From the sequence record OQ990040: 64,000 bases of DNA. One strand, given 5' to 3'. Made by a program: the position numbers and the translations under genes. How positions within the stretch are numbered: the stretch's first letter is position 1; every line of letters starts with the position of its first letter. The stretch is from Escherichia phage SUT_E520. Below the pieces are notes generated by a model, which ran no database searches, was not told the origin of the DNA, and saw only the letters and a program-made list of their open reading frames with translations. Of the stretch, positions 2,644-22,927 are shown piece by piece.

Positions 2644-3591
2644 TTACTTGTTACGCATATCCATGATCATTTGACCATCGTAGCCAGTACCTACCACAGT
2701 CTGAGGTACACCACCTTGATACTTCTGAGCACGGATCATTTCAACTTCCAGTTGTTTCCAACGAATCATTTCAGGAGTAATGGTACGTTGCAATGCGGCG
2801 TTAGCTTCAGCTTCTTTCTTAGCTGCGTACAGTTTAGCATCTGCGTCACGTTCATTAGCAATAGCTTGGTTGTTACGAGCTTCACGATCTGCTTCTGCTT
2901 GTTTAACTTTTTGCTGTGCTTCCTGTTCAACGCGAGCAAGTTCAGCTTTCGCAGCATTAACTTGCTCTTCACGAACTTTGGTATTCTGTACCTGTTCCAT
3001 GATTACTGGCGGCAAGGTAATATCCTGAAGGAATACCTGCTTAACTGTGTAACCATATGGGCGCGCATACTCTTCAACTTCCTGTTGAATTGCAGTTTGC
3101 AATTGAGCCTGAATTTTAGCATCAAATAAATCTTGTGCTTTAGGTACAGACTTACCAAACTCACGAATAGTAGACAGTAATTTTTCAGTTACATACTTGT
3201 CTAGTGCCTGATCCTGAGTACCTGCGTTAATACGGTTAATCGGTGCTTTAGAACCATCAAACTGCAACATAACAGTCAGGTCAACAGTGGATTTAAACTT
3301 ATCCTGGCTAGGAACCTGAAGTTTATCTAATTTTACAGCAATATCTTTTGTACTAAAAGTATCGAAAGATGCAAACGGGTTTACAAGATGGAAGCCCGGC
3401 AATACTGGATTAGGGTCTACTTTACCCAGGAATGTTTGGGTTTTAACCGTACCATCAGAAACAATAGTATATGAATTAAAAGCTAGGATTAAACCTGCTA
3501 AACCAACTACAGCACCAATACCCCAACGTTTAATAGTACGAATTACTTTCTGCTCAGAAGTCAGTTCTTTCATATTTTTAGTAGCAAACAT
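2644..3591 (-). CDS. SPFH/band-7 (prohibitin/HflKC-like) membrane protein
   Basis: N-terminal transmembrane segment (GIGAVVGLAGLILAF), band-7-like core, long charged coiled-coil tail (AKAELARVEQEAQQKVKQAEADREARNNQAI). Confidence 0.6.
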   Translation of the reverse strand: MFATKNMKELTSEQKVIRTIKRWGIGAVVGLAGLILAFNSYTIVSDGTVKTQTFLGKVDPNPVLPGFHLVNPFASFDTFSTKDIAVKLDKLQVPSQDKFKSTVDLTVMLQFDGSKAPINRINAGTQDQALDKYVTEKLLSTIREFGKSVPKAQDLFDAKIQAQLQTAIQQEVEEYARPYGYTVKQVFLQDITLPPVIMEQVQNTKVREEQVNAAKAELARVEQEAQQKVKQAEADREARNNQAIANERDADAKLYAAKKEAEANAALQRTITPEMIRWKQLEVEMIRAQKYQGGVPQTVVGTGYDGQMIMDMRNK

Positions 3592-3625
3592 ATATTTCCT
3601 TTGTTTTAGTTACAGTTAATAAAAT

Positions 3626-3700
3626 TGGCCGAGGTGACAGGATTCGAACCTGCATAAAGGAATTTAGAAGACTCCTGCCTCTCCCTTAGACTACACCCCG
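3626..3700 (-). tRNA. tRNA-Arg (anticodon UCU); CCA encoded
   Basis: Reverse complement folds as acceptor CGGGGTG/CACCTCG, anticodon stem GGAGT/ATTCC with loop CTTCTAA, T arm GCAGG-TTCGAAT-CCTGT, 3' GCCA. Confidence 0.75.
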
Positions 3701-4202
3701 TTTAAGTATTTTTAAGAACTCTCGTAAAAACTCTTAAAAATACAGACGATACCGGGAGAGTCATAAGTCTCACTCATTAAGTATTTCAAGACAAAATACA
3801 GTAACGTCTATTATTTTCCAGTTTAAGTCAGGGTGACTTAGTGGTTATGTCCTGCGGTATATTGAGGACTCGGTTAGGCTTGGGGTCATGACTTCCCACC
3901 TTTTGCTGCTACTCAACAGGAGTTATCGCGAATTACCTGTGCTATTGTGCACCATTAGTGACATCTCTCATGTCAGCATTTCCCACTTTGTGGATAGCTT
4001 GAAAAACTACTCCGATATGGAGAAAGAACTTCACTATCCTAGAATACCTTCTAAAGTTCTTCTTTAGCCTGGACATAGTTAAATCGTAATAAAACTATTC
4101 AGCAGACTGGTTGGTTAGTCTGGAACCAACTACCGCGTGGTTTAGGCAGTGCGCAACTAACCTCGGAAGCTTTTATGTTAAAAGCATCAGTTATCCAGTT
4201 CT

Positions 4203-4534: not shown

Positions 4535-4969
4535 TTAGAAAAATTCACTAGCAATCAAAGCAGTTGTTTTACCGTCATAACGTCCGGGAAATTCTGCCTT
4601 AATAGTTTTCATTAATAGAGCTTTGGTAATACCTGGGTTTAATTTAACCAGTTCTGCAAAATACTCACGAATCTGAACCTCAGTCAGTTGACTTGGCTGA
4701 TACTCTTGCAGCATGGAATAAAGCAGTTGCTCATAGTCTACATCAGTAGGAACTTCCATACCAACTTTAATAGCGCGTTGTTTTGCATTTTCTAGAGCCT
4801 TAATCTGAGCTTTCAGATAGGCTACGAACTCGGTTCGAGTAACAATGTCTTTATCAATACGTTGCAGATCACCAATCATGGTCTGAAGATTAAGTGCCCG
4901 TTCCTTATCACCGTGAGTACGTGCTAGACTAAGTAGTCCACGAAGGGTCATTAGAATATTTTCACCCAT
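4535..4969 (-). CDS. hypothetical protein
   Basis: 144-aa ORF; its ATG overlaps the stop of the upstream small ORF (TAATG). Confidence 0.6.
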   Translation of the reverse strand: MGENILMTLRGLLSLARTHGDKERALNLQTMIGDLQRIDKDIVTRTEFVAYLKAQIKALENAKQRAIKVGMEVPTDVDYEQLLYSMLQEYQPSQLTEVQIREYFAELVKLNPGITKALLMKTIKAEFPGRYDGKTTALIASEFF

Positions 4970-5139
4970 TATTTCATCCCCAATGCTTGGTTAAAAGATT
5001 GTTCTGTCATAACTGCTGAGACTTTGGCGAAATCAAACTTTTTAGGGTTCGTAGTTATTTCAGCAACGTTAGAAGTTTTAACAGTTTTCGTAGTACGAAT
5101 ACCGCGAGTGTTAACACCAATAATTACAACTGATTTCAT
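4969..5139 (-). CDS. hypothetical small protein (56 aa, MKSVVIIGVNTRGIRTTK...), absent from the ORF track
   Basis: ATG 8 nt after RBS GAGAGGAAG directly downstream of the 5171..5199 promoter; stop overlaps the next start. Confidence 0.5.
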   Translation of the reverse strand: MKSVVIIGVNTRGIRTTKTVKTSNVAEITTNPKKFDFAKVSAVMTEQSFNQALGMK

Positions 5140-5170
5140 ATTTCGCTTCCTCTCATTAATTTATGAAAGT

Positions 5171-5199
5171 ATTATACAGAAATTTAAGTAGCTAAGCAA
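5171..5199 (-). promoter_or_regulatory. sigma70-type early promoter (TTGCTT-17-TATAAT)
   Basis: Minus-strand hexamers at 17-nt spacing plus CATAAATTAATGAGAGG leader. Confidence 0.65.
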
Positions 5200-5207
5200 G
5201 TAAATTT

Positions 5208-5657
5208 TTAAGTTTTAGTGACAACAGGTTTATAGAATGTATGTCCCTTAATCTTAGTTGTTTTCTTAAACTTCTTTGTCCAGTAAGGTTTATCTTTACC
5301 ACTATGGAAGTATAGTGCTCCATATGTAGGATCTTGTGGTAAATCAACGTAGTATATCACTCTAGCTAAATTCTTAGCGGTTTGCCAAGCCTCATCAGTT
5401 TTATCAACTTTTGGTCTCTTAGATACCCAAGAGAACTGGTTAGACTGATATACTACTTTACAGTAGGAATCTGGGAATTTACCGGAGTTTACACGGTTTT
5501 TAGTAACATGTGCAATCGCCGTCATTCCCTTTATGCCCTCACCACGACTTTCGAAATAGATATTTTTAGCAATGCAATCTATTTCTTTTGCATCGTGCGA
5601 TGCCTGACTACTAAAGCTGAAGGTAAGGGCAGCTACTAAAAGCAAAGCTGCCTTCAT
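5208..5657 (-). CDS. secreted cell-wall hydrolase, SleB/CwlJ family, with signal peptide
   Basis: ORF track start is TTG; the ATG at MKAALLLVAALTFSFSSQA follows RBS AGGAGT; motifs NIYFESRGE, AIAHVTKNRV, VVYQSNQFSW. Confidence 0.65.
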   Translation of the reverse strand: MKAALLLVAALTFSFSSQASHDAKEIDCIAKNIYFESRGEGIKGMTAIAHVTKNRVNSGKFPDSYCKVVYQSNQFSWVSKRPKVDKTDEAWQTAKNLARVIYYVDLPQDPTYGALYFHSGKDKPYWTKKFKKTTKIKGHTFYKPVVTKT

Positions 5658-5662
5658 TCTTT

Positions 5663-5980
5663 TTACTCCTGCCAATCATATTCAACACGATTGGGATTTT
5701 CTTTATACCCTAAGTCAAGCAAATCATTACGCATATTTTGCTTAGCTACTGGGTTCGAGGTTACTAGTACCACTTTCTTTGGTCTCTGCCCAAATTCTAA
5801 GAGTAAACGAAGAATTTGATAACCTTCCATACCATCTACAGCCAAGTCATTATCCATATAAACGAAATGGCCGGTGGTATCAGTTTTATTCAGAAACTCT
5901 ACAGCGGCTTCTGGGGTTCGAATGATAATGTCCATTCCGTGAAGATTACGCACATCATCAATCAAAATATGAAAAGTCAT
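5663..5980 (-). CDS. stand-alone CheY-like response-regulator receiver domain protein
   Basis: 105 aa; ILIDD acidic pocket, FVYMDNDLAVDGMEGYQILRLL matching the phospho-Asp region, VLVTS (Thr/Ser), LGYKENP (Lys); no output domain. Confidence 0.55.
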   Translation of the reverse strand: MTFHILIDDVRNLHGMDIIIRTPEAAVEFLNKTDTTGHFVYMDNDLAVDGMEGYQILRLLLEFGQRPKKVVLVTSNPVAKQNMRNDLLDLGYKENPNRVEYDWQE

Positions 5981-6010
5981 AATAGCCTCGTTTCATCAAT
6001 TTAAAAATAT

Positions 6011-6039
6011 ATTATACAGATAACTTAGTAACTTAGTAA
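6011..6039 (-). promoter_or_regulatory. sigma70-type early promoter (TTACTA-17-TATAAT)
   Basis: Minus-strand hexamers at 17-nt spacing upstream of the receiver gene. Confidence 0.5.
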
Positions 6040-6430
6040 ATTAGCAAATACATTTTTAAATTGTGAAACTAGTAAACCGATAAACAGCCTAGAGGCGCCA
6101 CAGGCCATATCTTATGAGCCATGTACCTTTGATCTAGGGTTTGAATCATCAACGAATACTTTGCATCTTTTAGCTTTAGAAGTTTAGAAGTTTGAGTTCT
6201 TTAAACTTTTCAGCTTTCATACTTAAATGTTGATCTTTGAAGTTGTGTCGGTAATATCAACGACGCTTTGTTCTTACGTGTCAGCTTAAAAGGCTGGTGT
6301 AATAAACATAATCTCCAATAGATTATACTTTATAGTATGGTCAGCGGTCTTATTTAACCCCGTATTTCAACCGCTGCTGCGAGGTAAGATGCTTGGGCTT
6401 TCGTCTACCGATTTACTAGCTTTTAAATTA

Positions 6431-7069
6431 TTACTCTACTTCAATGAAGGTAGAGGCGTTAGACTCGGACAGAACAAAGTCAACATTTGTTGCAAAGTCC
6501 TGGTATTCCTCGTCATGCTGCTTAATCAACTTCTCCAGTTCCAGCGGATCAATCAAGAATGGAGTATTCTTGAGTTCCAGCAGGTTGAGTTGCATTTTAA
6601 CTTCATCTTCGGAAGTTTTCTTATCACGGGTAGCCATGCTATCCTGCAAACGCTCATATTTAGCATCAAACTGTGCTTTCTGCGTATTAAACTTAACCGT
6701 AGCGGCATGGAACTGCTTACGCATGTTAGCCAGCAGTTGAGCTTTAAGCTCCATAGAACGCTTAGCTTCAATTGCTTCCGCAACAGTCATTTTACGAGAA
6801 CCGATCTCAACGATTGTTTCTGCATTGCTCTTAATCAGAGCAGATTTAATACGATCACGCTGAGACATCATATCCAGCAGAGACTGGAAATCAGTCTTAA
6901 TACGAGTAGACAGATCAGCTACTTCGATTGCAGCGCCAACTACAACCTGGTTTTTATCCTTACCTTCACCAACAGCGATCAGAAGCTGCTGTTCAGTAGC
7001 TTTACGGATTTTAGCTTCCAGAGATTTGATAGTTGCTAGAGCGCGAGTTTTAGAAATACGAGTAGTCAT
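6431..7069 (-). CDS. hypothetical protein, predicted alpha-helical
   Basis: 212-aa ORF behind RBS AAGGAAACAAATA. Confidence 0.6.
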   Translation of the reverse strand: MTTRISKTRALATIKSLEAKIRKATEQQLLIAVGEGKDKNQVVVGAAIEVADLSTRIKTDFQSLLDMMSQRDRIKSALIKSNAETIVEIGSRKMTVAEAIEAKRSMELKAQLLANMRKQFHAATVKFNTQKAQFDAKYERLQDSMATRDKKTSEDEVKMQLNLLELKNTPFLIDPLELEKLIKQHDEEYQDFATNVDFVLSESNASTFIEVE

Positions 7070-7122
7070 TATTTGTTTCCTTATATGAGGTTTGAGATTT
7101 GAATTTGTTTAAAGTTGGTCTA

Positions 7123-7305
7123 TTACAGACCAATTGCCAGCAGAGTGCGCAGAACAGTATCGTTACTGTTATCAATTTTAGGATTAGCACGATTTAGCAG
7201 ATCAAAGATTTTCTGGACACCTGATTGACGTTCAGCCATACGACGGATACCCAGATTACGAGTAGCTTTCTTACCATTTTTACGAACATTTTTAGATACT
7301 GGCAT
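7123..7305 (-). CDS. hypothetical small basic protein
   Basis: 60-aa Lys/Arg-rich ORF behind RBS AAAAGGAAAACAAAT, first gene after the 7346..7374 promoter. Confidence 0.5.
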   Translation of the reverse strand: MPVSKNVRKNGKKATRNLGIRRMAERQSGVQKIFDLLNRANPKIDNSNDTVLRTLLAIGL

Positions 7306-7345
7306 ATTTGTTTTCCTTTTATTGTTTTCTCAAATTTATGAATAT

Positions 7346-7374
7346 ATTATACAGAATTTTGGAGCCGGAAGCAA
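7346..7374 (-). promoter_or_regulatory. sigma70-type early promoter (TTGCTT-17-TATAAT)
   Basis: Minus-strand hexamers at 17-nt spacing plus ATAAATTTGAGAAAAC leader. Confidence 0.65.
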
Positions 7375-7375
7375 A

Positions 7376-8077
7376 TCAAATTTTCATTTTTTCGATCATA
7401 GCTGCAACACAATAGCTTTCAACTAAGGCATCAAATGCAGGATCATGCTTAACCGGATAGATCCCATAACGAATGGTGTCCATCTTCTCCATTTTAGCTT
7501 TTGCCCAGCTAATACCTTCAGCCTCTAGATCTTTGTAACTATAATCAGCTTGCATCCAGAGATTACGAAGAGATCGAACATTGCCCAAATTCCAGAATTT
7601 CCACGGAACTACCTCTTCATTGGTTCCAGCATGGAATGTGTTTGCAGAGTAGATAGTCATATCAAACTCTGGGCCATTACCATAATACAAAGCATTTTCG
7701 CCTAGAGCCAACTCCATAATATTTTGAGCCATAGAGAAGGCAGCATAGTTTGAGCCAAATTTATTAGTGCAATGATGTTTACCATTTTGGAAGGCAATCA
7801 GTTTTGGATTACGTTCCTTCATAGCTTCCATAATGTGAATAGCAGACGGGCTATTTTTAGCTTGATCCATCCAGAATGCTAGAGTAGATGCTGTAACTTT
7901 AGCACCAGAATTAAGCTGATCTTGTACATCCAAAGTAACAAATACTAGATCAGGGTCTTTATCAATTCCATGCATAGCCACAAAAGCGAAAGAAGGCATT
8001 GCGATATGAGTAGTACCACAATCTCCTGGAGTTCCCAGAGATTCAATATCTAGCATACCAAATGGTTTTACTTTCAT
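7376..8077 (-). CDS. putative 3'-5' exonuclease (T4 DexA-like, DEDD fold)
   Basis: N-terminal MLDIESLGT resembles the DexA D-x-E motif (DFETMG); FWMDQAKNSPSA parallels the DexA WWKNQSPEA region. Confidence 0.45.
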   Translation of the reverse strand: MKVKPFGMLDIESLGTPGDCGTTHIAMPSFAFVAMHGIDKDPDLVFVTLDVQDQLNSGAKVTASTLAFWMDQAKNSPSAIHIMEAMKERNPKLIAFQNGKHHCTNKFGSNYAAFSMAQNIMELALGENALYYGNGPEFDMTIYSANTFHAGTNEEVVPWKFWNLGNVRSLRNLWMQADYSYKDLEAEGISWAKAKMEKMDTIRYGIYPVKHDPAFDALVESYCVAAMIEKMKI

Positions 8078-8105
8078 AAGTTATCCTTTATTGTGTAGAA
8101 AACTA

Positions 8106-8342
8106 TTAAAGAGCTGTCTCTTTAATAGACTCCCACTTCTTGGGGTCTTTAAAACCAGGGAGCATATCCTCACTGACATCCCAGTTCTCTTCCATAGAGA
8201 AGTCGGGCCATTCATCCCAACTACCTTCCAACTCTTCATAACAGGTATCCATTACCTCATGACTAGAAAGTCGTGTATAATCCCTAGCTGACTTATGGGT
8301 GGTAGCACGGTTAAAATCATTCTTTGCCACAAAATTACGCAT
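8106..8342 (-). CDS. hypothetical small acidic Trp-rich protein
   Basis: 78-aa ORF; C-terminal half is Asp/Glu/Trp-rich (EELEGSWDEWPDFSMEENWDVSEDM). Confidence 0.5.
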   Translation of the reverse strand: MRNFVAKNDFNRATTHKSARDYTRLSSHEVMDTCYEELEGSWDEWPDFSMEENWDVSEDMLPGFKDPKKWESIKETAL

Positions 8343-8357
8343 AGTTTCTCCAAATAA

Positions 8358-8380
8358 GAGGGGCTTTCGCCCCCTGATTT
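8358..8380. terminator. GC hairpin, intergenic terminator or attenuator
   Basis: GGGGC-TTTC-GCCCC hairpin flanked by A/T runs on both strands. Confidence 0.45.
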
Positions 8381-8383
8381 AAA

Positions 8384-8599
8384 TCACTTGCCCAGCAGTT
8401 TAAGGATATTTTCCATAATAGTTTGGGCAGATTTTTCACTCTTGTTGGTTTCAGCCAACTTTAAAGCGAGTTCTTCCTGCTGTTTCTGAATATCAGCTGC
8501 GATTTTTTGATCAGCCTCAATACGAGCTTGAAGCTCATCAGTGATAGTGGTAAAGGAAGCAACGATTTCAGTAACAGAACGTGGTTTCTTAGAGAACAT
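8384..8599 (-). CDS. hypothetical small helical protein
   Basis: 71-aa ORF behind RBS AAGGATATTTTTT. Confidence 0.5.
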   Translation of the reverse strand: MFSKKPRSVTEIVASFTTITDELQARIEADQKIAADIQKQQEELALKLAETNKSEKSAQTIMENILKLLGK

Positions 8600-8663
8600 A
8601 AAAAATATCCTTGATTAGTTAGAGAATTAGTGGATTGTAGGGGCTTCTGCCCCTATTTATCTA

Positions 8664-9179
8664 TTACTTCGCTTTACGCTTGCGAGCTGGTTTAGCAGAT
8701 TTACGAGCAGAATCACCAGTGAACTTAATGCCTACACCGTAACACAGAGCGCGAACATTATCTTTACTATACTCTACGCCAAAGATATTTGGCTTAACAG
8801 AACCAAACTGTCCACGAGTATCGCGCAATACATCTGCTGTTGGTTTACGCTTCTGGTTAACTGCCTTCTCGTAGTCTTTCATAGACATACCATTACGAGA
8901 GAACAATTCAGCCCCAGCGTTGAAACTCAAAGATACTGGGACAGATTTGTGGCCGTAATTTTCTACATACATAACCATTTTGTAGGATTTACGGGTGGCA
9001 TTTTTAGCTTTAGGCTTCTTACGAATCGGAGCCGGATTATTCAATGCTTGCGCAGCCTGAGCATCGGTAGGATGCTTACGCAGGTGACGTTCCAGACGAG
9101 CTTTGCGATTAGCCTCGGTCTGCGGGAAAGTTTTAACTGCCGGGGCTGCTTGAGTTTTTGCGTTTTTCTGCTTAGCCAT
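8664..9179 (-). CDS. hypothetical basic protein
   Basis: 171-aa Lys/Arg-rich ORF behind RBS AAAGGAAAACAAATA, first gene after the 9218..9246 promoter. Confidence 0.6.
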   Translation of the reverse strand: MAKQKNAKTQAAPAVKTFPQTEANRKARLERHLRKHPTDAQAAQALNNPAPIRKKPKAKNATRKSYKMVMYVENYGHKSVPVSLSFNAGAELFSRNGMSMKDYEKAVNQKRKPTADVLRDTRGQFGSVKPNIFGVEYSKDNVRALCYGVGIKFTGDSARKSAKPARKRKAK

Positions 9180-9217
9180 TATTTGTTTTCCTTTTTGTTT
9201 ATCAATTTATGAAGTAT

Positions 9218-9246
9218 ATTATACGAGAATTTGAAGCGTTTAGCAA
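9218..9246 (-). promoter_or_regulatory. sigma70-type early promoter (TTGCTA-17-TATAAT)
   Basis: Minus-strand hexamers at 17-nt spacing. Confidence 0.65.
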
Positions 9247-9254
9247 ATGAATTT

Positions 9255-9704
9255 TTAATTTATTAACTGTAAGCTTCTTTTAATTTCAGACCTTACTTGC
9301 ATCAAAAGGACTCCTAAAGTATTATCCCCGATGCCTCGGCAAACACCCCAATATGTATCTCCCCAGGTATTTCCTTCGATCAAAGTTGCATTTTCTGTTG
9401 CTAACAGTTTATCTCTTAAATCAGGAATTGCAAACTTTAATCGTAAAAGCTCTAGCATTACATCATCTTTTACTTTATCCCAGTCAGAGCGTAGGGTTAA
9501 TTTACGTCCTCTACGTTTAGCAACTCCTGCATTTAGGGAGCGGAGTACATGAGCTACATCATCTTTTTGGTCGGATTTCATAGCCTGAAAAGCATGTTCT
9601 ACAGTATCAGCATGCCATATCTCATTTAGATATTCGAAAGTAATTGGTGATAAATAAAAGTTAGATAAGAAACTATAAGTACCTTTAAATTCAGTAATCT
9701 TCAT
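9255..9704 (-). CDS. NADAR (YbiA-like) domain protein, candidate N-glycosidase / ADP-ribosyl hydrolase
   Basis: FLSNF, W...EHAFQA, LIEGNTWGDTYWG, GDNTLGVLLMQVR match the YbiA/NADAR pattern. Confidence 0.75.
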   Translation of the reverse strand: MKITEFKGTYSFLSNFYLSPITFEYLNEIWHADTVEHAFQAMKSDQKDDVAHVLRSLNAGVAKRRGRKLTLRSDWDKVKDDVMLELLRLKFAIPDLRDKLLATENATLIEGNTWGDTYWGVCRGIGDNTLGVLLMQVRSEIKRSLQLIN

Positions 9705-9985
9705 TTTTTACGCCCCGCATCTTTAGCCTCCTCGGCTGTATAGATATACTGATAAGCCCCTTTGGAGTAGGCTGGAGCAGTACACATTTTCTTACGCTCA
9801 ATCTCTTCTTGAGCTTTTCTTTCGCGTTCCGCTAATTCTTCGTCCAAATAAACTAAACGTTGTTCTGGAGGAGGTGGAAGACGTGTTTCTGGCTCGCCAA
9901 TATTAGCCTTTCTTATTTGACGAGGTGATTGTGCACGTTTTCTCAATGGTTTAAATCCTAATGAATTTGAGTTATAGATCCGCAT
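9701..9985 (-). CDS. hypothetical protein
   Basis: 94-aa ORF behind RBS GAGGAGGG; overlaps the NADAR start by 4 nt. Confidence 0.55.
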   Translation of the reverse strand: MRIYNSNSLGFKPLRKRAQSPRQIRKANIGEPETRLPPPPEQRLVYLDEELAERERKAQEEIERKKMCTAPAYSKGAYQYIYTAEEAKDAGRKK

Positions 9986-10012
9986 AAAGCCCTCCTCACT
10001 TTCAATACGAAT

Positions 10013-10041
10013 ATTATACTAAATTATAGGGCTTTAAGCAA
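10013..10041 (-). promoter_or_regulatory. sigma70-type early promoter (TTGCTT-17-TATAAT)
   Basis: Minus-strand hexamers at 17-nt spacing. Confidence 0.6.
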
Positions 10042-10062
10042 GAGAATTTTTTAATTTATTTA

Positions 10063-10539
10063 TCACATCTCAGCCATTTCAGCTTCAGTAATAACTGTAT
10101 TACATAAGGCGTCTACAGCCTCATTACCACTAATACCAGAATGTCCTTTAACCTTAATAAAGGTAGGGTTAGTATTATGAAAGTTGATATACTGCTGTGT
10201 TAATTTAAATGCTTCCTGCCAAAGTTCTAGATTAAGAGGAACTTCACCATCTGCTTTCTTCCAGCCTTTCCTTTGCCAAGAAAACATCCAACTTTCCATG
10301 CCATTTTTGCAATAAGCAGAGTCAGTATAGATAGCAATTGGTCTATTATCTTTTTTAACAGACCAACGTAGGGCTTCTACGATAGCTGTGAGTTCCATCT
10401 CATTATTTGTAGTTTTAGGATTATAACCAGATTTAGAACCTAAACGATCGTCGTTATCATCATAGACAATAAAACCCCAAGCACCTGGACCTGGATTAGA
10501 CTTACAAGCACCATCTGTGTAAATGTGGAAAACCGACAT
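10063..10539 (-). CDS. rnhA: ribonuclease HI
   Basis: IYTDGAC, ELTA, IYTDS, VKGHSGISGNEAVD motifs; start set at MSVFHIYTDG, giving ATGA overlap with the upstream gene. Confidence 0.8.
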   Translation of the reverse strand: MSVFHIYTDGACKSNPGPGAWGFIVYDDNDDRLGSKSGYNPKTTNNEMELTAIVEALRWSVKKDNRPIAIYTDSAYCKNGMESWMFSWQRKGWKKADGEVPLNLELWQEAFKLTQQYINFHNTNPTFIKVKGHSGISGNEAVDALCNTVITEAEMAEM

Positions 10540-10820
10540 TATACCTCCCAACTAATTTTAAGACCCATGTCTACAAAGGCGGCTTCTCGGTAGTATTGAG
10601 AGAGATGATACCCCTTATCCGATAAGGTTTTTAGTACCGATTTAGCGGCTCCTGGCATTTCTCTAGGATTATATAGCCACCTAGCGTAAGGATTATCTCG
10701 AATAATTACTTCTGTATTTCCAGACTTAGCAGCTTCTACAATCTTTTCTTCTATAAACTTTAGAAAAGCGGGTACTTCTGTTAATCCTGCAAGTTCTTGG
10801 GCTTCTTTGGCTGAAATCAT
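10539..10820 (-). CDS. hypothetical protein
   Basis: 93-aa ORF translationally coupled to its neighbours. Confidence 0.55.
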   Translation of the reverse strand: MISAKEAQELAGLTEVPAFLKFIEEKIVEAAKSGNTEVIIRDNPYARWLYNPREMPGAAKSVLKTLSDKGYHLSQYYREAAFVDMGLKISWEV

Positions 10821-11020
10821 GGCTTTTCACCTTCTGCTACACTTCTGGTTTTTGGTGGGATGGGAGGGTTAGGTTTTATAGCCGCTAATTCCCTATCTAA
10901 GAATTCCTCTATTGCTCTATCTACAAAGTAGTCATAGGGTAAATGATAATGTTCTGATAGAGTAAGAAGTTTGTGCTCTTGGCTTTCTGTTAAATAAACT
11001 TTCTTTCTAAAGAGTCCCAT
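10817..11020 (-). CDS. ribbon-helix-helix (CopG/Arc-like) DNA-binding protein
   Basis: 67 aa; KKVYLTESQEHKLLTLSEHYHLPYDYFVDRAIEEFLDRE fits a beta-strand plus two helices RHH layout. Confidence 0.5.
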   Translation of the reverse strand: MGLFRKKVYLTESQEHKLLTLSEHYHLPYDYFVDRAIEEFLDRELAAIKPNPPIPPKTRSVAEGEKP

Positions 11021-11046
11021 ATGTGTATCTCCAATCTATAAAATAT

Positions 11047-11075
11047 ATTATATTTAAATTTCACTAAATAAGCAA
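11047..11075 (-). promoter_or_regulatory. sigma70-type early promoter (TTGCTT-17-TATAAT)
   Basis: Minus-strand hexamers at 17-nt spacing. Confidence 0.6.
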
Positions 11076-11093
11076 ATGAAATTTAAATATAAT

Positions 11094-11113
11094 AGCCCCG
11101 AAGGGCTATTTAA
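11094..11113. terminator. GC hairpin terminator (AGCCC-CGAA-GGGCT)
   Basis: Short hairpin flanked by AT-rich runs between the RHH unit and thyA. Confidence 0.45.
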
Positions 11114-11114
11114 A

Positions 11115-11969
11115 TTACACAGTGAATGGATATGCAATAGCAGGATGGTGTTCGTAACCACGAACAGTAAAATCATCCTTATTTACCCAGGTCAATACAT
11201 CCTCCAGAGTTCGGATATTTGGATTGATTTCTAGAGTAGGAGGTGCAAAGGGTTCACGATCAAATTGCTTATGCTCCATCAAAACATTATACTGATCCTC
11301 ATAGATATGAAGATTGATAATCTTCTGGCGTGCAATCCCTGGTTTAAGGCCTGTAATCTGTGCCATTAATGCTAGAAGCGTATAGCACTGAACCATGTTA
11401 AATACTTGGCCTAACAGGAAGTCATTAGATCTCTGGAAAGAGTTCAGATATAATGTATCTCCCAAAATAGAGAACTGATGAGTATGCATACATGGACGTA
11501 AGCAACCCTTTGAGAACTCCCCCGGATTCCAGAAGGTTAGAATTTCCCCACGATCATCAATGCCCTTTTTCAGATTATGATAAATCTTGGCTAGTTGGTC
11601 AAACATAAGACCATCGGAATTAGTCCACTGACGTCCTTGAACACCATAGACTCGTCCCATATCATCCTCACCTTTACGGTATGGATTGTCTAGCCAAGCT
11701 AAGTTTTCATTTGCATTAGCATTCCATGTGTTAACACCAATAGCGCGGAATTGTGCTGCTGAATCATACCCACGTAGATACCCAATCATTTCCATTATTG
11801 CTTGTTTTGCAAACGCCTTACGAGTAGTAATAAGTGGGAATTCACCTGCACCTACGTTAAAAGTAAAATCTGCATCAATAATGGTGAGGCAACGAACCCC
11901 TGTTCTGGGATTCGTTACCCACTGACCTTCTGATAGAATACGTTTTCCAACTTCTATATACTGATCCAT
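11115..11969 (-). CDS. thyA: thymidylate synthase
   Basis: [10 protein letters not shown] active-site Cys motif and [13 protein letters not shown] motif; 284 aa. Confidence 0.9.
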
Positions 11970-12502
11970 TAATAAGTAACCAATTCCTGTACAAATCGCA
12001 GGCTGTTATCACTGTTTGCGCCAGTTGCGTAAACTAAACGAGTAGATTCATAGTTGTAATCTAGAATCGTATTATCCAGATATACATCTGCCTCTAGTTT
12101 TTGATTACTAAAGATTGTGGATACAAAAGCACTTTCAATATGACCATATTGATACATTTCTAGAAGAAGGTTAGCACCACCTAGAACTACTGTCTGCTGA
12201 TCTTTCAGAAATGTAGGTAAAGCATCCCCAATCTTAGAAATTGGGGTGTAAATATCATGTGTAATATCATCTGGCAGTGGACGATCAGCACGAATAAATA
12301 GGTCAGAAGCTCCAATCATACGTTCTCTAACGGCGTATGGAAGAGCTAAATAAGTACCCGCACCAATGATGATGTTATCTGGATTCAACACGTCCAGTTG
12401 AGAATAGAAAGCATCTAGTTCTTCTTTGAAGGAACCCCATGGAAGTTTACCGCGGAGGCCGAACTCCCCATTCGGCCCAACTGCATACATTGCTGTAATC
12501 AT
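11969..12502 (-). CDS. frd: dihydrofolate reductase
   Basis: [23 protein letters not shown]-terminal DHFR signature; adjacent to thyA. Confidence 0.8.
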
Positions 12503-13644
12503 AAGAAATCTCCAAATTCATTACCCAGATCTTTCAGAGTATCAGTAGAGGTCTCAGTTACCTGACCTACACGGTAGGCTGCACCAATCTGGATTTCTTG
12601 TGGAGCAGGCTGTAGAGAAGTAGTATCCAACCAGTTCATAATCCACGGAATAGGGTTTTTGGTGATTACTGGTAAATGACTAGGCCATTCTACACCGATG
12701 TGCATAAATGCATTACGTCCCACAAAATACAGATATTCTTCTAGAAGTTCTGCATTCAAGCCAATCAGACTACGACCTTTGAAAATGAAATGACCCCATT
12801 CAATTTCAGTTTTCAGAGTTTTCAGGAGCTGTGCTGGTGCTTTAGCCACTGCTTCATCTACCAGATCTTTGTCAAATTGCTGAAACATAATCTGGATGAT
12901 TGCTTTGGACATCTGAGTGTGCAGAGCTTCATCTTTAGCGATTAATTGCAGATTTTTAGCAATACCTTGCAGAATATCGTTCTCTGCTAATGCAAAGGTA
13001 CATGCAAAGGATGCGTAAAACTGCATTGCTTCCAGACCATAGATCGCAAAGTAAGCGTCTAATAGTTTAGCCTGAGTTTCACGTTTAACTTCAGGGAACT
13101 CAGTTTCTGGATATGTATTGTCGCCACGATGATCGCGTACTGCGATGAAATACTGACCTAACTGGTACAGTTCATCGAATAGTTCAACAGAATCAGCGAT
13201 GCGCGCGAATGCTTCTTGGTTTTTGGTTACAGAATCAATAAATTCTGCTGGATCAGTCAGCACATTACGAATAATATTGCTATAAGCACGACTATGCAGG
13301 TCTTCAAAATAGCTCCACTGTTTGAGCATACCTTCCAATTCTGGACGACTTACAAGCGGCATAATAGCTGCTTCAGGGGCACGACTAATAAAGGAATCAG
13401 TTTGAGTTTGCCATGCTAAGTTCAGGAGTGTAATTTCCTGAATTTCTCGTGGGAGATTAGGCCATTGTTTCTTATCTGCTTCCAGACTGATTTCAGTTTC
13501 AGTCCAAAATTGAGAGCGCTGCAGAAGTGCCAGACGTTCTAGTTCTGGATGTGCTACACGTACATAATCTGCGATACCGAGAGAATCTCCCAGGAAAAGG
13601 TCGGCGTTAGTATGATCCCAATTCAGGTTTAGTAAAGTAGTCAT
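12499..13644 (-). CDS. nrdB: ribonucleotide reductase class Ia small subunit
   Basis: Di-iron ligand motifs including KDEALHTQ; 381 aa; upstream of nrdA. Confidence 0.85.
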   Translation of the reverse strand: MTTLLNLNWDHTNADLFLGDSLGIADYVRVAHPELERLALLQRSQFWTETEISLEADKKQWPNLPREIQEITLLNLAWQTQTDSFISRAPEAAIMPLVSRPELEGMLKQWSYFEDLHSRAYSNIIRNVLTDPAEFIDSVTKNQEAFARIADSVELFDELYQLGQYFIAVRDHRGDNTYPETEFPEVKRETQAKLLDAYFAIYGLEAMQFYASFACTFALAENDILQGIAKNLQLIAKDEALHTQMSKAIIQIMFQQFDKDLVDEAVAKAPAQLLKTLKTEIEWGHFIFKGRSLIGLNAELLEEYLYFVGRNAFMHIGVEWPSHLPVITKNPIPWIMNWLDTTSLQPAPQEIQIGAAYRVGQVTETSTDTLKDLGNEFGDFL

Positions 13645-19933: not shown

Positions 19934-19966
19934 CAGCCGGGTTGCTAGTCGACCTGGCTTTTATTT
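19934..19966 (+). terminator. intrinsic terminator after nrdD
   Basis: Hairpin AGCCGGG...CCTGGCT followed by TTTTATTTTATTT. Confidence 0.65.
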
Positions 19967-20026: not shown

Positions 20027-20407
20027 ATGGAATTAAAGCCCTATATAGTTGAGTCTACATGTGGTGGTTTCCATCTTGGCGTAGACGATCTTAGAGAAGC
20101 TATTTTTGCATCTACTGGAGATTATTCCCATCTAGAGGGTATTGGATATTCATCAATTATTGGTGATTGGGTAGAAACAAATCTAGATGTATCACCATAT
20201 AACTCAGATTGCTTGTTTGACGAGGATGAGGATGAAATAAAGTATGATATTGAATTTGTTTATAATAGAGTATTAAAAGTATACCAACGTAATCCCGAGG
20301 GATACGAAGATATTACTAAAGGTATTAAACAGTATCTTAAAGATGTATACTATAATTTTTCTGATGAAGACCTAGAAACAGTTGCAGTGGAGTTTAATAA
20401 TGGCTAA
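20027..20407 (+). CDS. hypothetical acidic protein
   Basis: 126-aa ORF directly after the leader RBS. Confidence 0.6.
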   Translation: MELKPYIVESTCGGFHLGVDDLREAIFASTGDYSHLEGIGYSSIIGDWVETNLDVSPYNSDCLFDEDEDEIKYDIEFVYNRVLKVYQRNPEGYEDITKGIKQYLKDVYYNFSDEDLETVAVEFNNG

Positions 20408-20606
20408 GAATGTAAAACATCTTAAATATCGCTTAATTTACAATGGACGTATGGAAACAGAAGACCTGGCCCAATTAGCTATTAATTCTAACGAGGTTAC
20501 AGTGCGTGCGCTGGCAATTGAAAAGTTGCGTGCCTCTTATGAAAATCGTGTTATGGAACTAGAGGAGAAACTTTATGGCATTCTCGAAGCCGATGCTACC
20601 AGATAA
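20400..20606 (+). CDS. hypothetical protein
   Basis: ORF track 20382..20606; ATG at MAKNVKHL overlaps the upstream stop. Confidence 0.45.
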   Translation: MAKNVKHLKYRLIYNGRMETEDLAQLAINSNEVTVRALAIEKLRASYENRVMELEEKLYGILEADATR

Positions 20607-20796
20607 GGGTTTAAACGCCGCTTTGGAAAACGCATTAATGCAGCACTGGGAAACTGGCTATAAGGATGGTGTTGAATCCTGCGCTACTATGCTAGAAGTT
20701 ATTGCTAATACCTTAATGGAGAAAGGCAATAAAGAATTAGCTGAGCTATTAGACAGTATTGGGCAAAACTTCAGAGAACAGGTGAAAAATGCGTAG
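20575..20796 (+). CDS. hypothetical protein
   Basis: 73-aa ORF behind RBS GAGGAG. Confidence 0.5.
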   Translation: MAFSKPMLPDKGLNAALENALMQHWETGYKDGVESCATMLEVIANTLMEKGNKELAELLDSIGQNFREQVKNA

Positions 20797-21604
20797 ATTA
20801 ATTGTTATTAGCGGTGCAGGTTTGAGTGTTGAAAGTGGTGTACGAGCTTTTCGTACTGATACTGCTAGTGGTAAAGCATTGTGGGATGATTATGATCTAG
20901 AAGAAGTATGTAATATTCATGCCTTTCGTGGTAATTTTTATCATAAAACCCATATGTTTTACAACAAGCGTCGTGAAGAGCTAAAAACTGTTGAACCCAA
21001 TCTTGCGCATTTGCGTATCGGTGAATGGTATAAACAATATCCAGGTCAAGTAGTAAACTTGACTACCAACGTTGATGACCTTATTGAGCGTTCTGGCGTT
21101 CCACATAATGACATTCTACACATTCATGGATATTTAAAAGAGGTTGTTGTAGCTGATAGCTACAATAGTAGCAATAAACGGATTATTGATGTAGGATACA
21201 ATTCTATTGATCCAGATGATTATAAATGGGTTAAACCTAATGTAATCTTCTTTGGAGAGCATGCTCCAGCATATGCGGAGATGTACAATGTTTTTGATGG
21301 TATTACCAGTCAAGATATGATCATTGTGGTTGGTTGCTCTAACCAAGTAATTAACTTCTACTGGGAATTATTTCCTGTTCTTAATTTGACTGCTGCCAAG
21401 CTAATGGTTGTTAACTACTATGATAGTGCCCTAGCGGCGGAACCGAGCTATCAAGGTATGACTCGTAGTGAGATGTACCAGCTGGAAGAACGCGGTATCC
21501 CTTACTGGGGTAAAGGTGCGGTAGATGCTTTCAGTGATCCTGATTTTATTGCTCGTGTAGAAGCTCATTTAGGGGGTAGACCTTATGTGTCAGGAAATAA
21601 GTAA
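20789..21604 (+). CDS. Sir2-like (sirtuin-family) NAD-binding protein without Zn-ribbon
   Basis: GAGLSVESGVRAFR, TTNVDDLIERSG and catalytic-His HIHGY motifs; no CxxC pairs in the expected region. Confidence 0.65.
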   Translation: MRRLIVISGAGLSVESGVRAFRTDTASGKALWDDYDLEEVCNIHAFRGNFYHKTHMFYNKRREELKTVEPNLAHLRIGEWYKQYPGQVVNLTTNVDDLIERSGVPHNDILHIHGYLKEVVVADSYNSSNKRIIDVGYNSIDPDDYKWVKPNVIFFGEHAPAYAEMYNVFDGITSQDMIIVVGCSNQVINFYWELFPVLNLTAAKLMVVNYYDSALAAEPSYQGMTRSEMYQLEERGIPYWGKGAVDAFSDPDFIARVEAHLGGRPYVSGNK

Positions 21605-22097
21605 TACTCCAATTATTTTTCTAGACATTGATGGGGTGCTCAATTCGAGCATCTCCCACTATCATGCACCTGATGATGAAAAGATTTTCTTTGGAAGTGA
21701 TTGGGTTTTCAAACCGCTTCTCAAGGCTTTTCAGGACTTTATTCGTCCTTCTCCAATAATGATTGTTGGAGTATCATCTTGGTTCTCTGTCAGAAATGAG
21801 ATGGAGAACGTTCAGATTATGACCGGATTAGGCCTTATCGATCGTTTTCTTGGTACAACGGATTTTACTGGTGGTGGATTATCTAGGGGTAATTCTGTTC
21901 TTCGCTTCGTTGAAAAGCATAAGCTCAAACATTGGTGTGTGCTTGATGATGCGGGTGCTATGATGTATCAGTATCCAACGGTTATAGTCAACGGTAGGAC
22001 TGGTATAAATCTTCAAGATTTAAAAGCTGTTAGCTATATGCTAGAATTTAGCCCAGATCTTGAAATGTGTAAATCCTTACAACAATTTAAGGTGTAA
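21585..22097 (+). CDS. HAD-superfamily phosphatase (possible 5'-deoxyribonucleotidase)
   Basis: HAD motif I IIFLDIDGVLN near the N-terminus; overlaps the Sir2-like stop. Confidence 0.45.
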   Translation: MCQEISNTPIIFLDIDGVLNSSISHYHAPDDEKIFFGSDWVFKPLLKAFQDFIRPSPIMIVGVSSWFSVRNEMENVQIMTGLGLIDRFLGTTDFTGGGLSRGNSVLRFVEKHKLKHWCVLDDAGAMMYQYPTVIVNGRTGINLQDLKAVSYMLEFSPDLEMCKSLQQFKV

Positions 22098-22099
22098 AT

Positions 22100-22528
22100 A
22101 TGTTCAATAATGTATTCTCTAAAGAAGCTAACCCAATTTTGGTTAACTTTTGGCGTACTCTTCCAGCTAGCCTGTATAATGAGGCTATTAACTCTTTGAA
22201 AATATGGTGTGAGAATAACGAAATCTACTTTGCTTTTAAAGATGATATTGATGAAGCCCCCTGTATTGGTTTAATTGTTCAGGTAGAGGAGGGTCTTGAA
22301 GAGATTGTCGGCTGGAAAGAGTTAGATGAAATGGGCTTAGTTTTTGCGTTAAACTATAAGCTGTTTATGCCTGCTAAGCATCGCCTCGTTGTTAACTATA
22401 AAACTAGTGAATCTCCTGGTTTTCAAGTTAATGAACGTTACGGTTGGTCTTACTCACCAGAAGAAGTGAATGATGGTATCCAAAAACTTCGCCGTTTCGG
22501 GTATATGATCCCAGGTTTAACTGCTTAA
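22100..22528 (+). CDS. hypothetical protein, paralog A of a tandem pair
   Basis: 142-aa ORF behind RBS AAGGTG; shares PCIG and ELDEMGLVFALN with the next ORF. Confidence 0.6.
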   Translation: MFNNVFSKEANPILVNFWRTLPASLYNEAINSLKIWCENNEIYFAFKDDIDEAPCIGLIVQVEEGLEEIVGWKELDEMGLVFALNYKLFMPAKHRLVVNYKTSESPGFQVNERYGWSYSPEEVNDGIQKLRRFGYMIPGLTA

Positions 22529-22537
22529 GGAGGCAGA

Positions 22538-22927
22538 ATGGAACAAGTATATTGGCGTCAGATTGACCCTAGTTTGGTGAAACGTGCGGAGAAGCTGCTA
22601 CAACGTTGGTTGGGGGTAAGACAAGCCTCCTTCACTTTTCCTGAGCAGCAAATAGATGATCCATGCATTGGCGTTTTCCTGTCTGGATACGCCAGGGAAT
22701 GGGAACTGGATTGGAATGAGTTGTCTGCTATGGGTTTAATTGTTGCCCTAAATTTCTCTTTGTTCCATCCACGTGGTTTTGCCATATGTCGTGTGCCGGA
22801 TGATGGTTGTTCGCCCCATCTTTTACAGGTGGAAAATGATATTTGGGAGTACACTCCAGATATTCTCAAAGAAGCTAAAGAACAATTAAACCGTGTTGGG
22901 ATATATGTTCCGGGATTAAATGACTAA
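22538..22927 (+). CDS. hypothetical protein, paralog B of a tandem pair
   Basis: 129-aa ORF behind RBS TAAGGAGG; shares PCIG, ELSAMGLIVALN and C-terminal VPGLND with the previous ORF. Confidence 0.6.
   Translation: MEQVYWRQIDPSLVKRAEKLLQRWLGVRQASFTFPEQQIDDPCIGVFLSGYAREWELDWNELSAMGLIVALNFSLFHPRGFAICRVPDDGCSPHLLQVENDIWEYTPDILKEAKEQLNRVGIYVPGLND

Follow-up and report, generated by a model that had tools for sequence, protein, structure and literature searches.

A sirtuin without zinc cysteines and a HAD_SAK_2 phosphatase in an early operon of T5-like phages: candidates for the repair of RNA ends

What do a Sir2-like protein devoid of zinc-ligand cysteines and a small phosphatase of the HAD family, encoded by overlapping genes, do for the phage that carries them? 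The question is raised by a locus of Escherichia phage SUT_E520 (sequence record OQ990040), of which a stretch of 64,000 nucleotides (nt), referred to here as the window, was analysed. The sirtuin gene (20789..21604; 271 amino acids (aa); Pfam PF02146; PHROG 2162) is a homologue of T5 cobB (T5.102), and the phosphatase gene (21585..22097; 170 aa; Pfam HAD_SAK_2, PF18143) is a homologue of T5.105; both, like all features described below, lie on the + strand. To judge by their sequences, both open reading frames (ORFs) are genuine genes and not chance ORFs, and near certainly both are accessory genes that belong to an early operon of a T5-like phage (Tequintavirus). A first-pass annotation of the locus had suggested an NADase or ADP-ribosyltransferase and a coupled NAD or nucleotide-processing module. 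From sequence comparison and analogy we tentatively favour another reading, to which we give somewhat less than an even chance: the pair may repair broken RNA ends, probably those of tRNA, with NAD+ use by the sirtuin.

The sirtuin matches the Pfam SIR2 profile at 86 bits against a cut-off of 24, over profile positions 1-178 of 180, and PF02146 is its only Pfam match at E<=1. An exhaustive HMMER search of 1.84 billion representatives returned 2820 relatives at E<=1e-3; conservation was counted over the 141 that could be aligned out of the best 150 of these, and over 62 close homologues. The NAD-binding motifs and catalytic-type histidine recognised in the first-pass annotation are present. Within the NAD-binding loop GAGLSVESGVRAFR (residues 9-22; 20813..20854), G9, A10, G11, S13, S16, G17, F21 and R22 are invariant in the close homologues and nearly so in the 141 representatives. 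TTNVDDL (residues 92-98; 21062..21082) is a TQNID variant that has T in place of Q; neither N94 nor D96 varies, and position 93 is Q in 86/141 and T in 43/141 representatives. His113, in the HG motif (codon 21125..21127), aligns with the HG histidine of CobB and is kept in 141/141. The YxxR motif of class III sirtuins takes the form YNKR (residues 58-61; 20960..20971), which aligns with YNAR of CobB; the tyrosine is conserved in 134 and the arginine in 106 of the 141 representatives. The FGE loop is also present in the CobB alignment. In the profile alignment, V187-I188-N189 (21347..21355) stand where CobB has, after GTS, the V-Y-P stretch that pairs with the substrate peptide. Within the close clade V187 never varies and I188 hardly does, and position 189 is proline in only 56/141 representatives. 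Contacts between the V-Y-P stretch and the substrate peptide have been described (PMC5107563), and with VYP replaced by VIN and TQNID by TTNVD, part of the peptide-binding surface is, on this alignment, near certainly changed.

Among solved structures CobB (1s5p) is the best relative by sequence (E=4e-17 for a single-sequence search, 4e-31 for one with the 62-sequence profile); Sir2Af1/2, SIRT5 and Sir2Tm come next. The AlphaFold2 model has a predicted local distance difference test score (pLDDT) of 91.3 and a predicted template modelling score (pTM) of 0.89. A Foldseek search with this model found the same proteins as the sequence search, with CobB as top match (template modelling score 0.72 by query length, 0.85 by target length). 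The clade is phage-rich, with homologues of the sirtuin in about 1000 phage genome records, and near certainly branches nearest the CobB/SIRT5 (class III) deacylases. Sequence and predicted fold thus place the protein as CobB/SIRT5-like by descent, and not as an NADase-type SIR2. By the profile scores it is not a CobB equivalog, because the NCBIfam CobB models score far under their cut-offs (NF040867, 88.7 versus 320 bits; NF001753, 99 versus 243). It shares with CobB/SIRT5 the NAD loop, the N/D pair, the catalytic His, the FGE loop, YxxR and a small domain of about the same size; it differs in the missing zinc Cys, in VIN for VYP and TTNVD for TQNID, in its sub-cut-off scores, and in being phage-encoded, in a clade that adjoins RNA-repair genes.

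Compared with both sirtuins and defence-type SIR2 domains, the kind of check by which the first-pass annotation proposed to check itself, the protein falls nearest the CobB/SIRT5 deacylases and not the defence type, with zinc ligands absent and VYP and TQNID altered. There was no SIR2_2 match in Pfam at E<=1, no match to the PADLOC defence models at E<=0.01, and no defence SIR2 among the top 50 Foldseek matches of the model; a defence-type SIR2 NADase is ruled out by these three results. Defence SIR2 NADases (ThsA, DSR1/2, SIR2-HerA, SIR2-APAZ/pAgo) are NAD+ users of the same broad Sir2 superfamily. Unlike them, the phage sirtuin belongs to a lytic phage and is a single-domain protein, with no fused or adjacent sensor or partner (SLOG, HerA, pAgo/APAZ or a large C-terminal domain); its operon neighbours are small ORFs, the HAD gene and DUF7415 genes. 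A SirTM-type ADP-ribosyltransferase was likewise rejected for lack of a Macro partner, Pfam finding no Macro domain in the 7 operon ORFs.

The missing cysteines call for a separate explanation. The sirtuin has only C41 and C183 and no CxxC, as the first-pass annotation had noted. Its description of the protein as zinc-ribbon-less holds for the Cys ligands only; the module itself is kept. Residues 115-148 (21131..21232), which include a conserved DVGY, form a small-domain insert of 34 residues; in the alignment it falls on the zinc module (Cys4) of E. coli CobB, and it contains zero Cys. AlphaFold2 predicts this module as three beta strands (114-122, 131-134 and 147-152) at pLDDT >90. Between HG and KP, CxxC occurs twice in 68/141 representatives, once in 21, three times in 1 and not at all in 51, and the closest relatives are all Cys-less (CxxC in 0/120 homologues at >=50% identity). 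With or without cysteines, the module retains its length (about 30-40 aa) and an (I/V)GY motif. Because of this distribution, the kept length and motif and the predicted strands, we read the zinc ligands as having been lost repeatedly while the module persists. Cys4 and Cys-less members of the family have the same catalytic motifs, and by this comparison Cys loss alone is uninformative on a change of chemistry. The step from a missing CxxC to an NADase or ADP-ribosyltransferase is therefore not supported: the protein matches PF02146 and not SIR2_2 or PADLOC models, its nearest matches are deacylases, and YxxR is present. For phage sirtuins of the KVP40 type, an in silico study of 2016 had already reported that the zinc ligands are missing, and it listed T5 as a carrier of a homologue (PMC5107563). 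The Sir2/CobB protein of the KVP40-like vibriophages (Skliros et al. 2016, PMC5107563) is Cys-less and about 39% identical to the present sirtuin over residues 3-209.

The second protein scores 71.9 bits against a cut-off of 27.5 with Pfam HAD_SAK_2, over profile positions 1-138 of 139. According to the Pfam description, it is RNA-repair proteins that define this family, named "Swiss Army Knife RNA repair"; its definition originates with Burroughs & Aravind 2016, as cited in PMC9503650. In 28 homologues, with identity down to 27%, F12-L13-D14-I15-D16-G17-V18-L19-N20 is invariant; this segment includes motif I, DIDGV (D14, D16; 21624..21638). Motif II, S64-S65 in VGVSSWF (21774..21779), and R101, a candidate for the basic residue of motif III, are invariant in the same set, as is D121 of motif IV (D121-D122; 21945..21950), D122 being >=90% conserved. 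The AlphaFold2 model is confident and shows a HAD Rossmannoid fold with a minimal cap. No PDB relative was found at the sequence level, and the fold search did not discriminate substrate classes. On sequence and model, the protein is near certainly an active-looking small phosphomonoesterase with catalytic motifs I, II and IV intact. Its likeness to the small-cap HADs (T4 Pnkp phosphatase domain, MDP-1, Scp1/Fcp1) amounts to only 10-17% identity and, unlike T4 Pnkp, it has no fused kinase or ligase domain. An assignment as the T5 5'-deoxynucleotidase was ruled out, a separate gene elsewhere in the genome having that annotation.

Homologues of the HAD occur in about 500 phage genome records, where its labels can mislead. 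PHROG 18062 (92 aa, 'Sir2 NAD-dependent deacetylase') has matches in both proteins, to the HAD's C-terminal half and to a short sirtuin piece, the same combination as in a fusion found in phage DT57C. The HAD thereby appears to have been labelled a second 'Sir2' in many phage genomes.

The neighbourhoods of relatives bear on RNA repair. Sirtuins of Vequintavirinae, 56-62% identical to the present one, lie in operons with an RNA ligase, flanked by a polynucleotide kinase and a phosphoesterase (Bas58, Mydo). We surveyed the neighbours within 2.6 kb in 31 viral-contig sirtuin loci, namely 30 with no HAD within 6 kb and one further contig of 86 kb (L148, below). Among 149 distinct neighbours, the Pfam families met most often were ATP-dependent DNA ligase (14), T4-type RNA ligase (10), AAA_33 kinase (10) and cREC (6), the last a cyclic-phosphate-processing domain (Pfam). 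By its pairwise identity of 56-62%, the sirtuin of the window is placed in the same clade as those adjoining RNA ligase, kinase and cREC genes. The survey independently reproduces the neighbourhoods of Iyer, Burroughs, Anantharaman & Aravind 2022 (Viruses 14:1977, section 3.7.3, PMC9503650), who described a sirtuin alongside a HAD of 'Swiss-army-knife-like' type in Escherichia phage SP15. These authors predicted that the viral sirtuin clade removes RNA 2'-phosphates like KptA, with the SP15-type pair as the third configuration (PMC9503650). SP15 is also a Tequintavirus, with the same two gene families and neighbourhood; the window is another instance, and nothing essential differs. The prediction of RNA repair is supported by our survey because sirtuins of the clade adjoin RNA ligase, polynucleotide kinase and cREC genes.

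The HAD family has a more mixed gene context. Around non-T5 HAD loci (n=149 neighbours) we found DNA polymerase A (8), T4 Rnl1-type (2) and other RNA ligases (2), CCA-adding-type nucleotidyltransferases (2), exoribonucleases (2) and Prs-like/NAPRTase-like pairs (2), the pairs belonging to Serratia phage ChuuTotoro and Acinetobacter phage ABPH49. The RNA ligases, nucleotidyltransferases and exoribonuclease near these distant HADs were counted in favour of RNA repair.

The association of the two genes with each other was then followed across phages. They occur in the same order in every Tequintavirus and Epseptimavirus contig examined; the neighbourhood of sirtuin and SAK-type HAD is found in 23/23 Tequintavirus contigs, with both ORFs intact in all 23, and in 5 further T5-like contigs. 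The link recurs in Pantoea phage AAS21, a distant family member, with another order (HAD, ORF094 homologue, sirtuin), and in L148, an unrelated viral contig that encodes a Cys-less sirtuin (6001-6708) and a HAD_SAK_2 gene (9075-9602) 2.4 kb apart among an array of 11 tRNA genes (4535-12556). Both recurrences were counted in favour of RNA repair. Overall, a tRNA gene lies within 3 kb of 1/59 sirtuin loci and 5/65 non-T5 HAD loci, figures that have no baseline and are anecdotal only. In KVP40-like vibriophages both genes are present, about 70 kb apart, and the sirtuin neighbourhood of KVP40 holds no informative genes, two respects in which this type differs from the T5-like pair.

The function we favour would proceed as follows. 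Host nucleases would cut RNA, probably tRNA, so that its broken ends carry 2',3'-cyclic phosphates. At the damaged RNA ends the sirtuin would then consume NAD+ in an attack on a non-peptide group of anionic character; an anionic ligand, either an acidic acyl group or a phosphate, would suit the conserved YxxR. The published candidate target is an RNA 2'-phosphate, by analogy with KptA/Tpt1, whose fold is unrelated to that of the sirtuin and which is proposed as a functional analogue only. In the Tpt1 reaction an oxygen nucleophile attacks C1'' of NAD+, nicotinamide leaves, and the phosphate departs on ADP-ribose (PMC11417386). The sirtuin reaction would correspondingly release nicotinamide and ADP-ribose phosphate, and the HAD would either take the terminal phosphate off the RNA or act on the by-product, dephosphorylating ADP-ribose phosphate. 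Searched by tblastn at E<=1, the whole phage genome yielded neither an RNA ligase nor a polynucleotide kinase, so host enzymes would have to carry out any rejoining or renewed addition of CCA. In its strict form this proposal states that the phage-clade sirtuin acts on nucleic acid and not on protein, as an RNA 2'-phosphotransferase or as a remover of another blocking group on tRNA, that the HAD clears the phosphate, and that T5-like phages use the pair, next to tRNA genes of their own, against tRNA damage by host defence nucleases; taken as a whole, we regard that chain of claims as rather doubtful.

Several observations weigh against RNA repair. The closest solved relatives of the sirtuin are all protein-lysine deacylases, and by alignment and model it keeps the FGE loop and YxxR. 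Both proteins are acidic (isoelectric point (pI) about 5.5), unlike typical RNA-binding enzymes. As far as the genome sequence tells, the pathway would be incomplete in the phage, with no RNA ligase or polynucleotide kinase of its own. Sirtuin and HAD genes adjoin each other in hardly more than one phage family: a sirtuin lies within 8 kb in 0/60 non-T5 viral-contig HAD loci, and 30/59 sirtuin loci have no HAD within 6 kb. Even within Demerecviridae the sirtuin does not always have the HAD beside it, since Klebsiella-type T5-like phages (L143, L145, L146; 106-123 kb) carry nrdD, the sirtuin, DUF7415 genes and the origin-binding gene and no HAD. In three phages the coupling is instead between a HAD homologue and genes of NAD-salvage type. 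Phage auxiliary-gene islands mix functions, which makes inference from neighbours weak. Finally, our literature search found no biochemical or genetic experiment on the T5 pair (T5.102, T5.105, T5p100, T5p103) or on phage sirtuins. The sirtuin-less HAD loci and HAD-less sirtuin loci rule out the two proteins as obligate partners. Aeromonas phages account for 36 records with the HAD, but stay below the 7 records required for a place in the organism list of the sirtuin.

The foremost alternative, which we consider unlikely though a serious contender, is that the sirtuin is an ordinary deacylase that acts on acetyl, succinyl or malonyl lysine of host or phage proteins, in an early metabolic reprogramming such as CobB/SIRT5 would bring about, and that the HAD is an unrelated operon neighbour. 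Descent speaks for it, as CobB, Sir2Af1, SIRT5 and Sir2Tm are the best matches in both sequence and fold and the GAG...FR loop, N94, D96, H113, the FGE loop and YxxR are all conserved; moreover, the 2016 study modelled a Cys-less KVP40-type phage sirtuin as a working deacetylase (PMC5107563). The independent occurrence of sirtuin and HAD in most lineages points the same way, as does the origin of the gene overlap in a deletion accident, described next. The substrate-facing features agree less well, namely the change from V-Y-P to V-I-N (with Pro in only 56/141 representatives) and of the Q of TQNID to T, as do the low scores with the NCBIfam CobB models (88.7 versus 320 and 99 versus 243 bits). 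The genes that recur beside the clade, those for RNA ligase, kinase and cREC, include none for protein modification or metabolism, which argues against a deacylase.

The overlap spans 20 nt (21585..21604). The sirtuin stop codon TAA occupies 21602-21604, and the HAD start at 21585 is the first ATG past an in-frame TAG, 8 nt downstream of AGGGGGT (21571..21577), which reads as a Shine-Dalgarno-like sequence. The first-pass annotation was correct that the sirtuin stop overlaps a gene for a HAD-family phosphatase. In T5 the two genes are separated by a spacer of 322 nt that holds two ORFs of 60-61 aa (3653-3838 and 3829-4011 of the T5 locus, L002) with a common motif [ST]WCYR (ESGTWCYR and ADGSWCYR). 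Both are absent from the window at about 21593-21596, where DNA alignment with T5 and Seafire places the junction of a clean deletion of ~330 nt (21593..21596, ambiguous within GGAA), bounded by the imperfect repeats GGAAGTAAGAAAT and GGAAATAAGTAAT. The first T5 mini-ORF uses the same ATG (MCQE...) as the HAD gene of the window, and it overlaps the sirtuin gene already in T5. The HAD N-terminus is MCQEISN in the window versus MEISN in T5, and the sirtuin C-terminus is SGNK versus SGSKK. By these alignments, the overlap is near certainly secondary, the deletion having taken out two mini-genes and the HAD thereby having acquired, with the same near certainty, the start codon of the first. The spacer in 23 Tequintavirus viral contigs measures -20 nt in 4, 155-159 in 13, 279 in 2, 322 in 3 and 459 in 1. 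Translational coupling as a conserved design is ruled out by these varied classes and by the T5 spacer with its two ORFs. The copy number of the mini-genes varies among T5-like phages.

A second alternative, close to the coupled NAD or nucleotide module of the first-pass annotation, is a small-molecule pathway, with NAD+ or a derivative as substrate of the sirtuin and the HAD taking phosphate off a phosphorylated ADP-ribose or a nucleotide, which could serve to counter host NAD+-based immunity or to recycle what it produces. Part of that idea survives: the genes form one operon, are translationally coupled here, and an NAD-linked role beyond ordinary deacetylation is plausible. The remainder does not, the overlap being the product of a lineage-specific deletion and HAD_SAK_2 an RNA-repair-associated family and not a recognised nucleotide or NAD phosphatase family. 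Support for a small-molecule substrate comes from Serratia phage ChuuTotoro (L008, 5001-8217) and Acinetobacter phage ABPH49 (L009, 5001-8222), in which a HAD_SAK_2 gene overlaps a Prs-like gene by 4 nt and is followed by a NAPRTase-like gene, and from Serratia phage Kashira, which has the same layout at the DNA level. The HAD homologues of these three phages are about 40% identical to that of the window, and Prs-like or NAPRTase-like genes lie <=8 kb from the HAD in five further loci. There is also a precedent for an accessory phosphatase in the NARP1 operons, in that case a Macro domain acting on ADPR-1''-phosphate (10.64898/2026.01.28.702374). However, no Prs-like or NAPRTase-like gene (NARP1 Adps/Namat) was found by tblastn at E<=1 in the whole genome of the phage, the link to NARP1-like genes is seen in only three records of one lineage, and the sirtuin is not of the NADase type, having neither a SIR2_2 nor a PADLOC match. 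Draining NAD+ would in addition hurt the phage itself, the DNA ligase of T5 being, as we presume, NAD+-dependent. The minimal cap predicted from the 170-aa model of the HAD would usually go with large substrates. Taken together, we consider this alternative quite improbable. Independently of the sirtuin, the HAD in the NARP1-like layout may represent another type of accessory phosphatase, serving NAD+ reconstitution in phages; our reading of main texts of NARP1 papers found no mention of it.

That both genes are decaying, non-functional remnants, as the loss of the zinc Cys and natural deletions, the indel-prone spacer and the DT57C fusion might suggest, is hardly credible and was ruled out on conservation, given catalytic residues invariant across hundreds of phages and in homologues down to 27-35% identity, intact ORFs in 23/23 Tequintavirus contigs, two confident AlphaFold2 models, and Cys-less modules that keep their length and DVGY.

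The DT57C fusion joins in frame sirtuin residues 171-216 and HAD residues 130-170 (ORF 3480-3752 of the DT57C locus, L007; annotated 'defective sir2') and is devoid of both active sites. The pair must be dispensable for growth of DT57C because the fusion removes both, and this phage is a ready-made natural double mutant of sirtuin and HAD.

Much of this is already known: annotation of the sirtuin goes back to the genome records of T5 (Wang et al. 2005, as cited in PMC5107563), Cys-less phage sirtuins have been described since 2016, and the exact pair and the RNA-repair hypothesis since 2022. As a sequence finding the locus adds little, and its weight lies in the functional prediction of 2022. 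To the description of SP15 the present analysis adds the deletion-born overlap, the recurrent Cys loss, the separability of the two genes and the NARP1-like context of the HAD, this last a lead toward a second type of accessory phosphatase in NAD+ reconstitution. Were the sirtuin to remove RNA 2'-phosphates or to repair tRNA, sirtuin chemistry would be extended to nucleic acids, in a clade carried by about 1000 sequenced phages. It would be the first sirtuin shown to act on RNA and a fold-independent analogue of Tpt1/KptA, and the tRNA-based counter-defence of T5-like phages would gain a branch for repair. The tRNA genes of the phage itself, at least 22 in number, were counted in favour of RNA repair.

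A region of 1.7 kb at the locus is 100% identical to Escherichia phages SUT_E1520 and SUT_E420, and in megablast it matched 426 T5-like records, all Demerecviridae of the genus Tequintavirus. T5 records name the pair cobB ('putative transferase', Sir2 domain; T5.102) and 'Aeh1ORF302c-like protein' (T5.105). According to the T5 annotation, a putative early promoter, T5P31, precedes ORF094, ORF095, cobB, the HAD gene and two ORFs, which end at a terminator; the operon is flanked by nrdD on one side and by the gene for a replication-origin-binding protein on the other. The gene order of the window matches this layout. Our promoter scan did not recover T5P31. At the upstream boundary a terminator-like hairpin (19935..19959) lies 3' of nrdD, and T5 annotates a terminator at the equivalent place. 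Between it and the sirtuin gene are three small ORFs (20027-20407, ORF094-like; 20382-20606; 20575-20796) that belong to PHROGs 11748, 5236 and 5827, with no function assigned. The ORF094-like protein is very acidic (126 aa, pI 4.1), and it alone of the remaining operon members accompanies the two genes in the rearranged AAS21 locus.

By tblastn, Tequintavirus and Epseptimavirus proteins are about 90% identical for the HAD and only about 52% for the sirtuin, a difference that suggests a swap of sirtuin alleles by recombination inside an otherwise conserved operon. The 3' end is formed by two DUF7415 paralogues (22100-22528 and 22538-22927; Pfam PF24187). DUF7415 genes are retained in DT57C, which has lost both enzymes, and in the HAD-less Klebsiella-type T5-like phages, and two contigs of Aeromonas T4-like phages (L033, L034) carry a relative at a distance of ~1.8 kb from the HAD. 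One record labels the tandem DUF7415 genes 'tail tube protein', which is implausible for an early operon.

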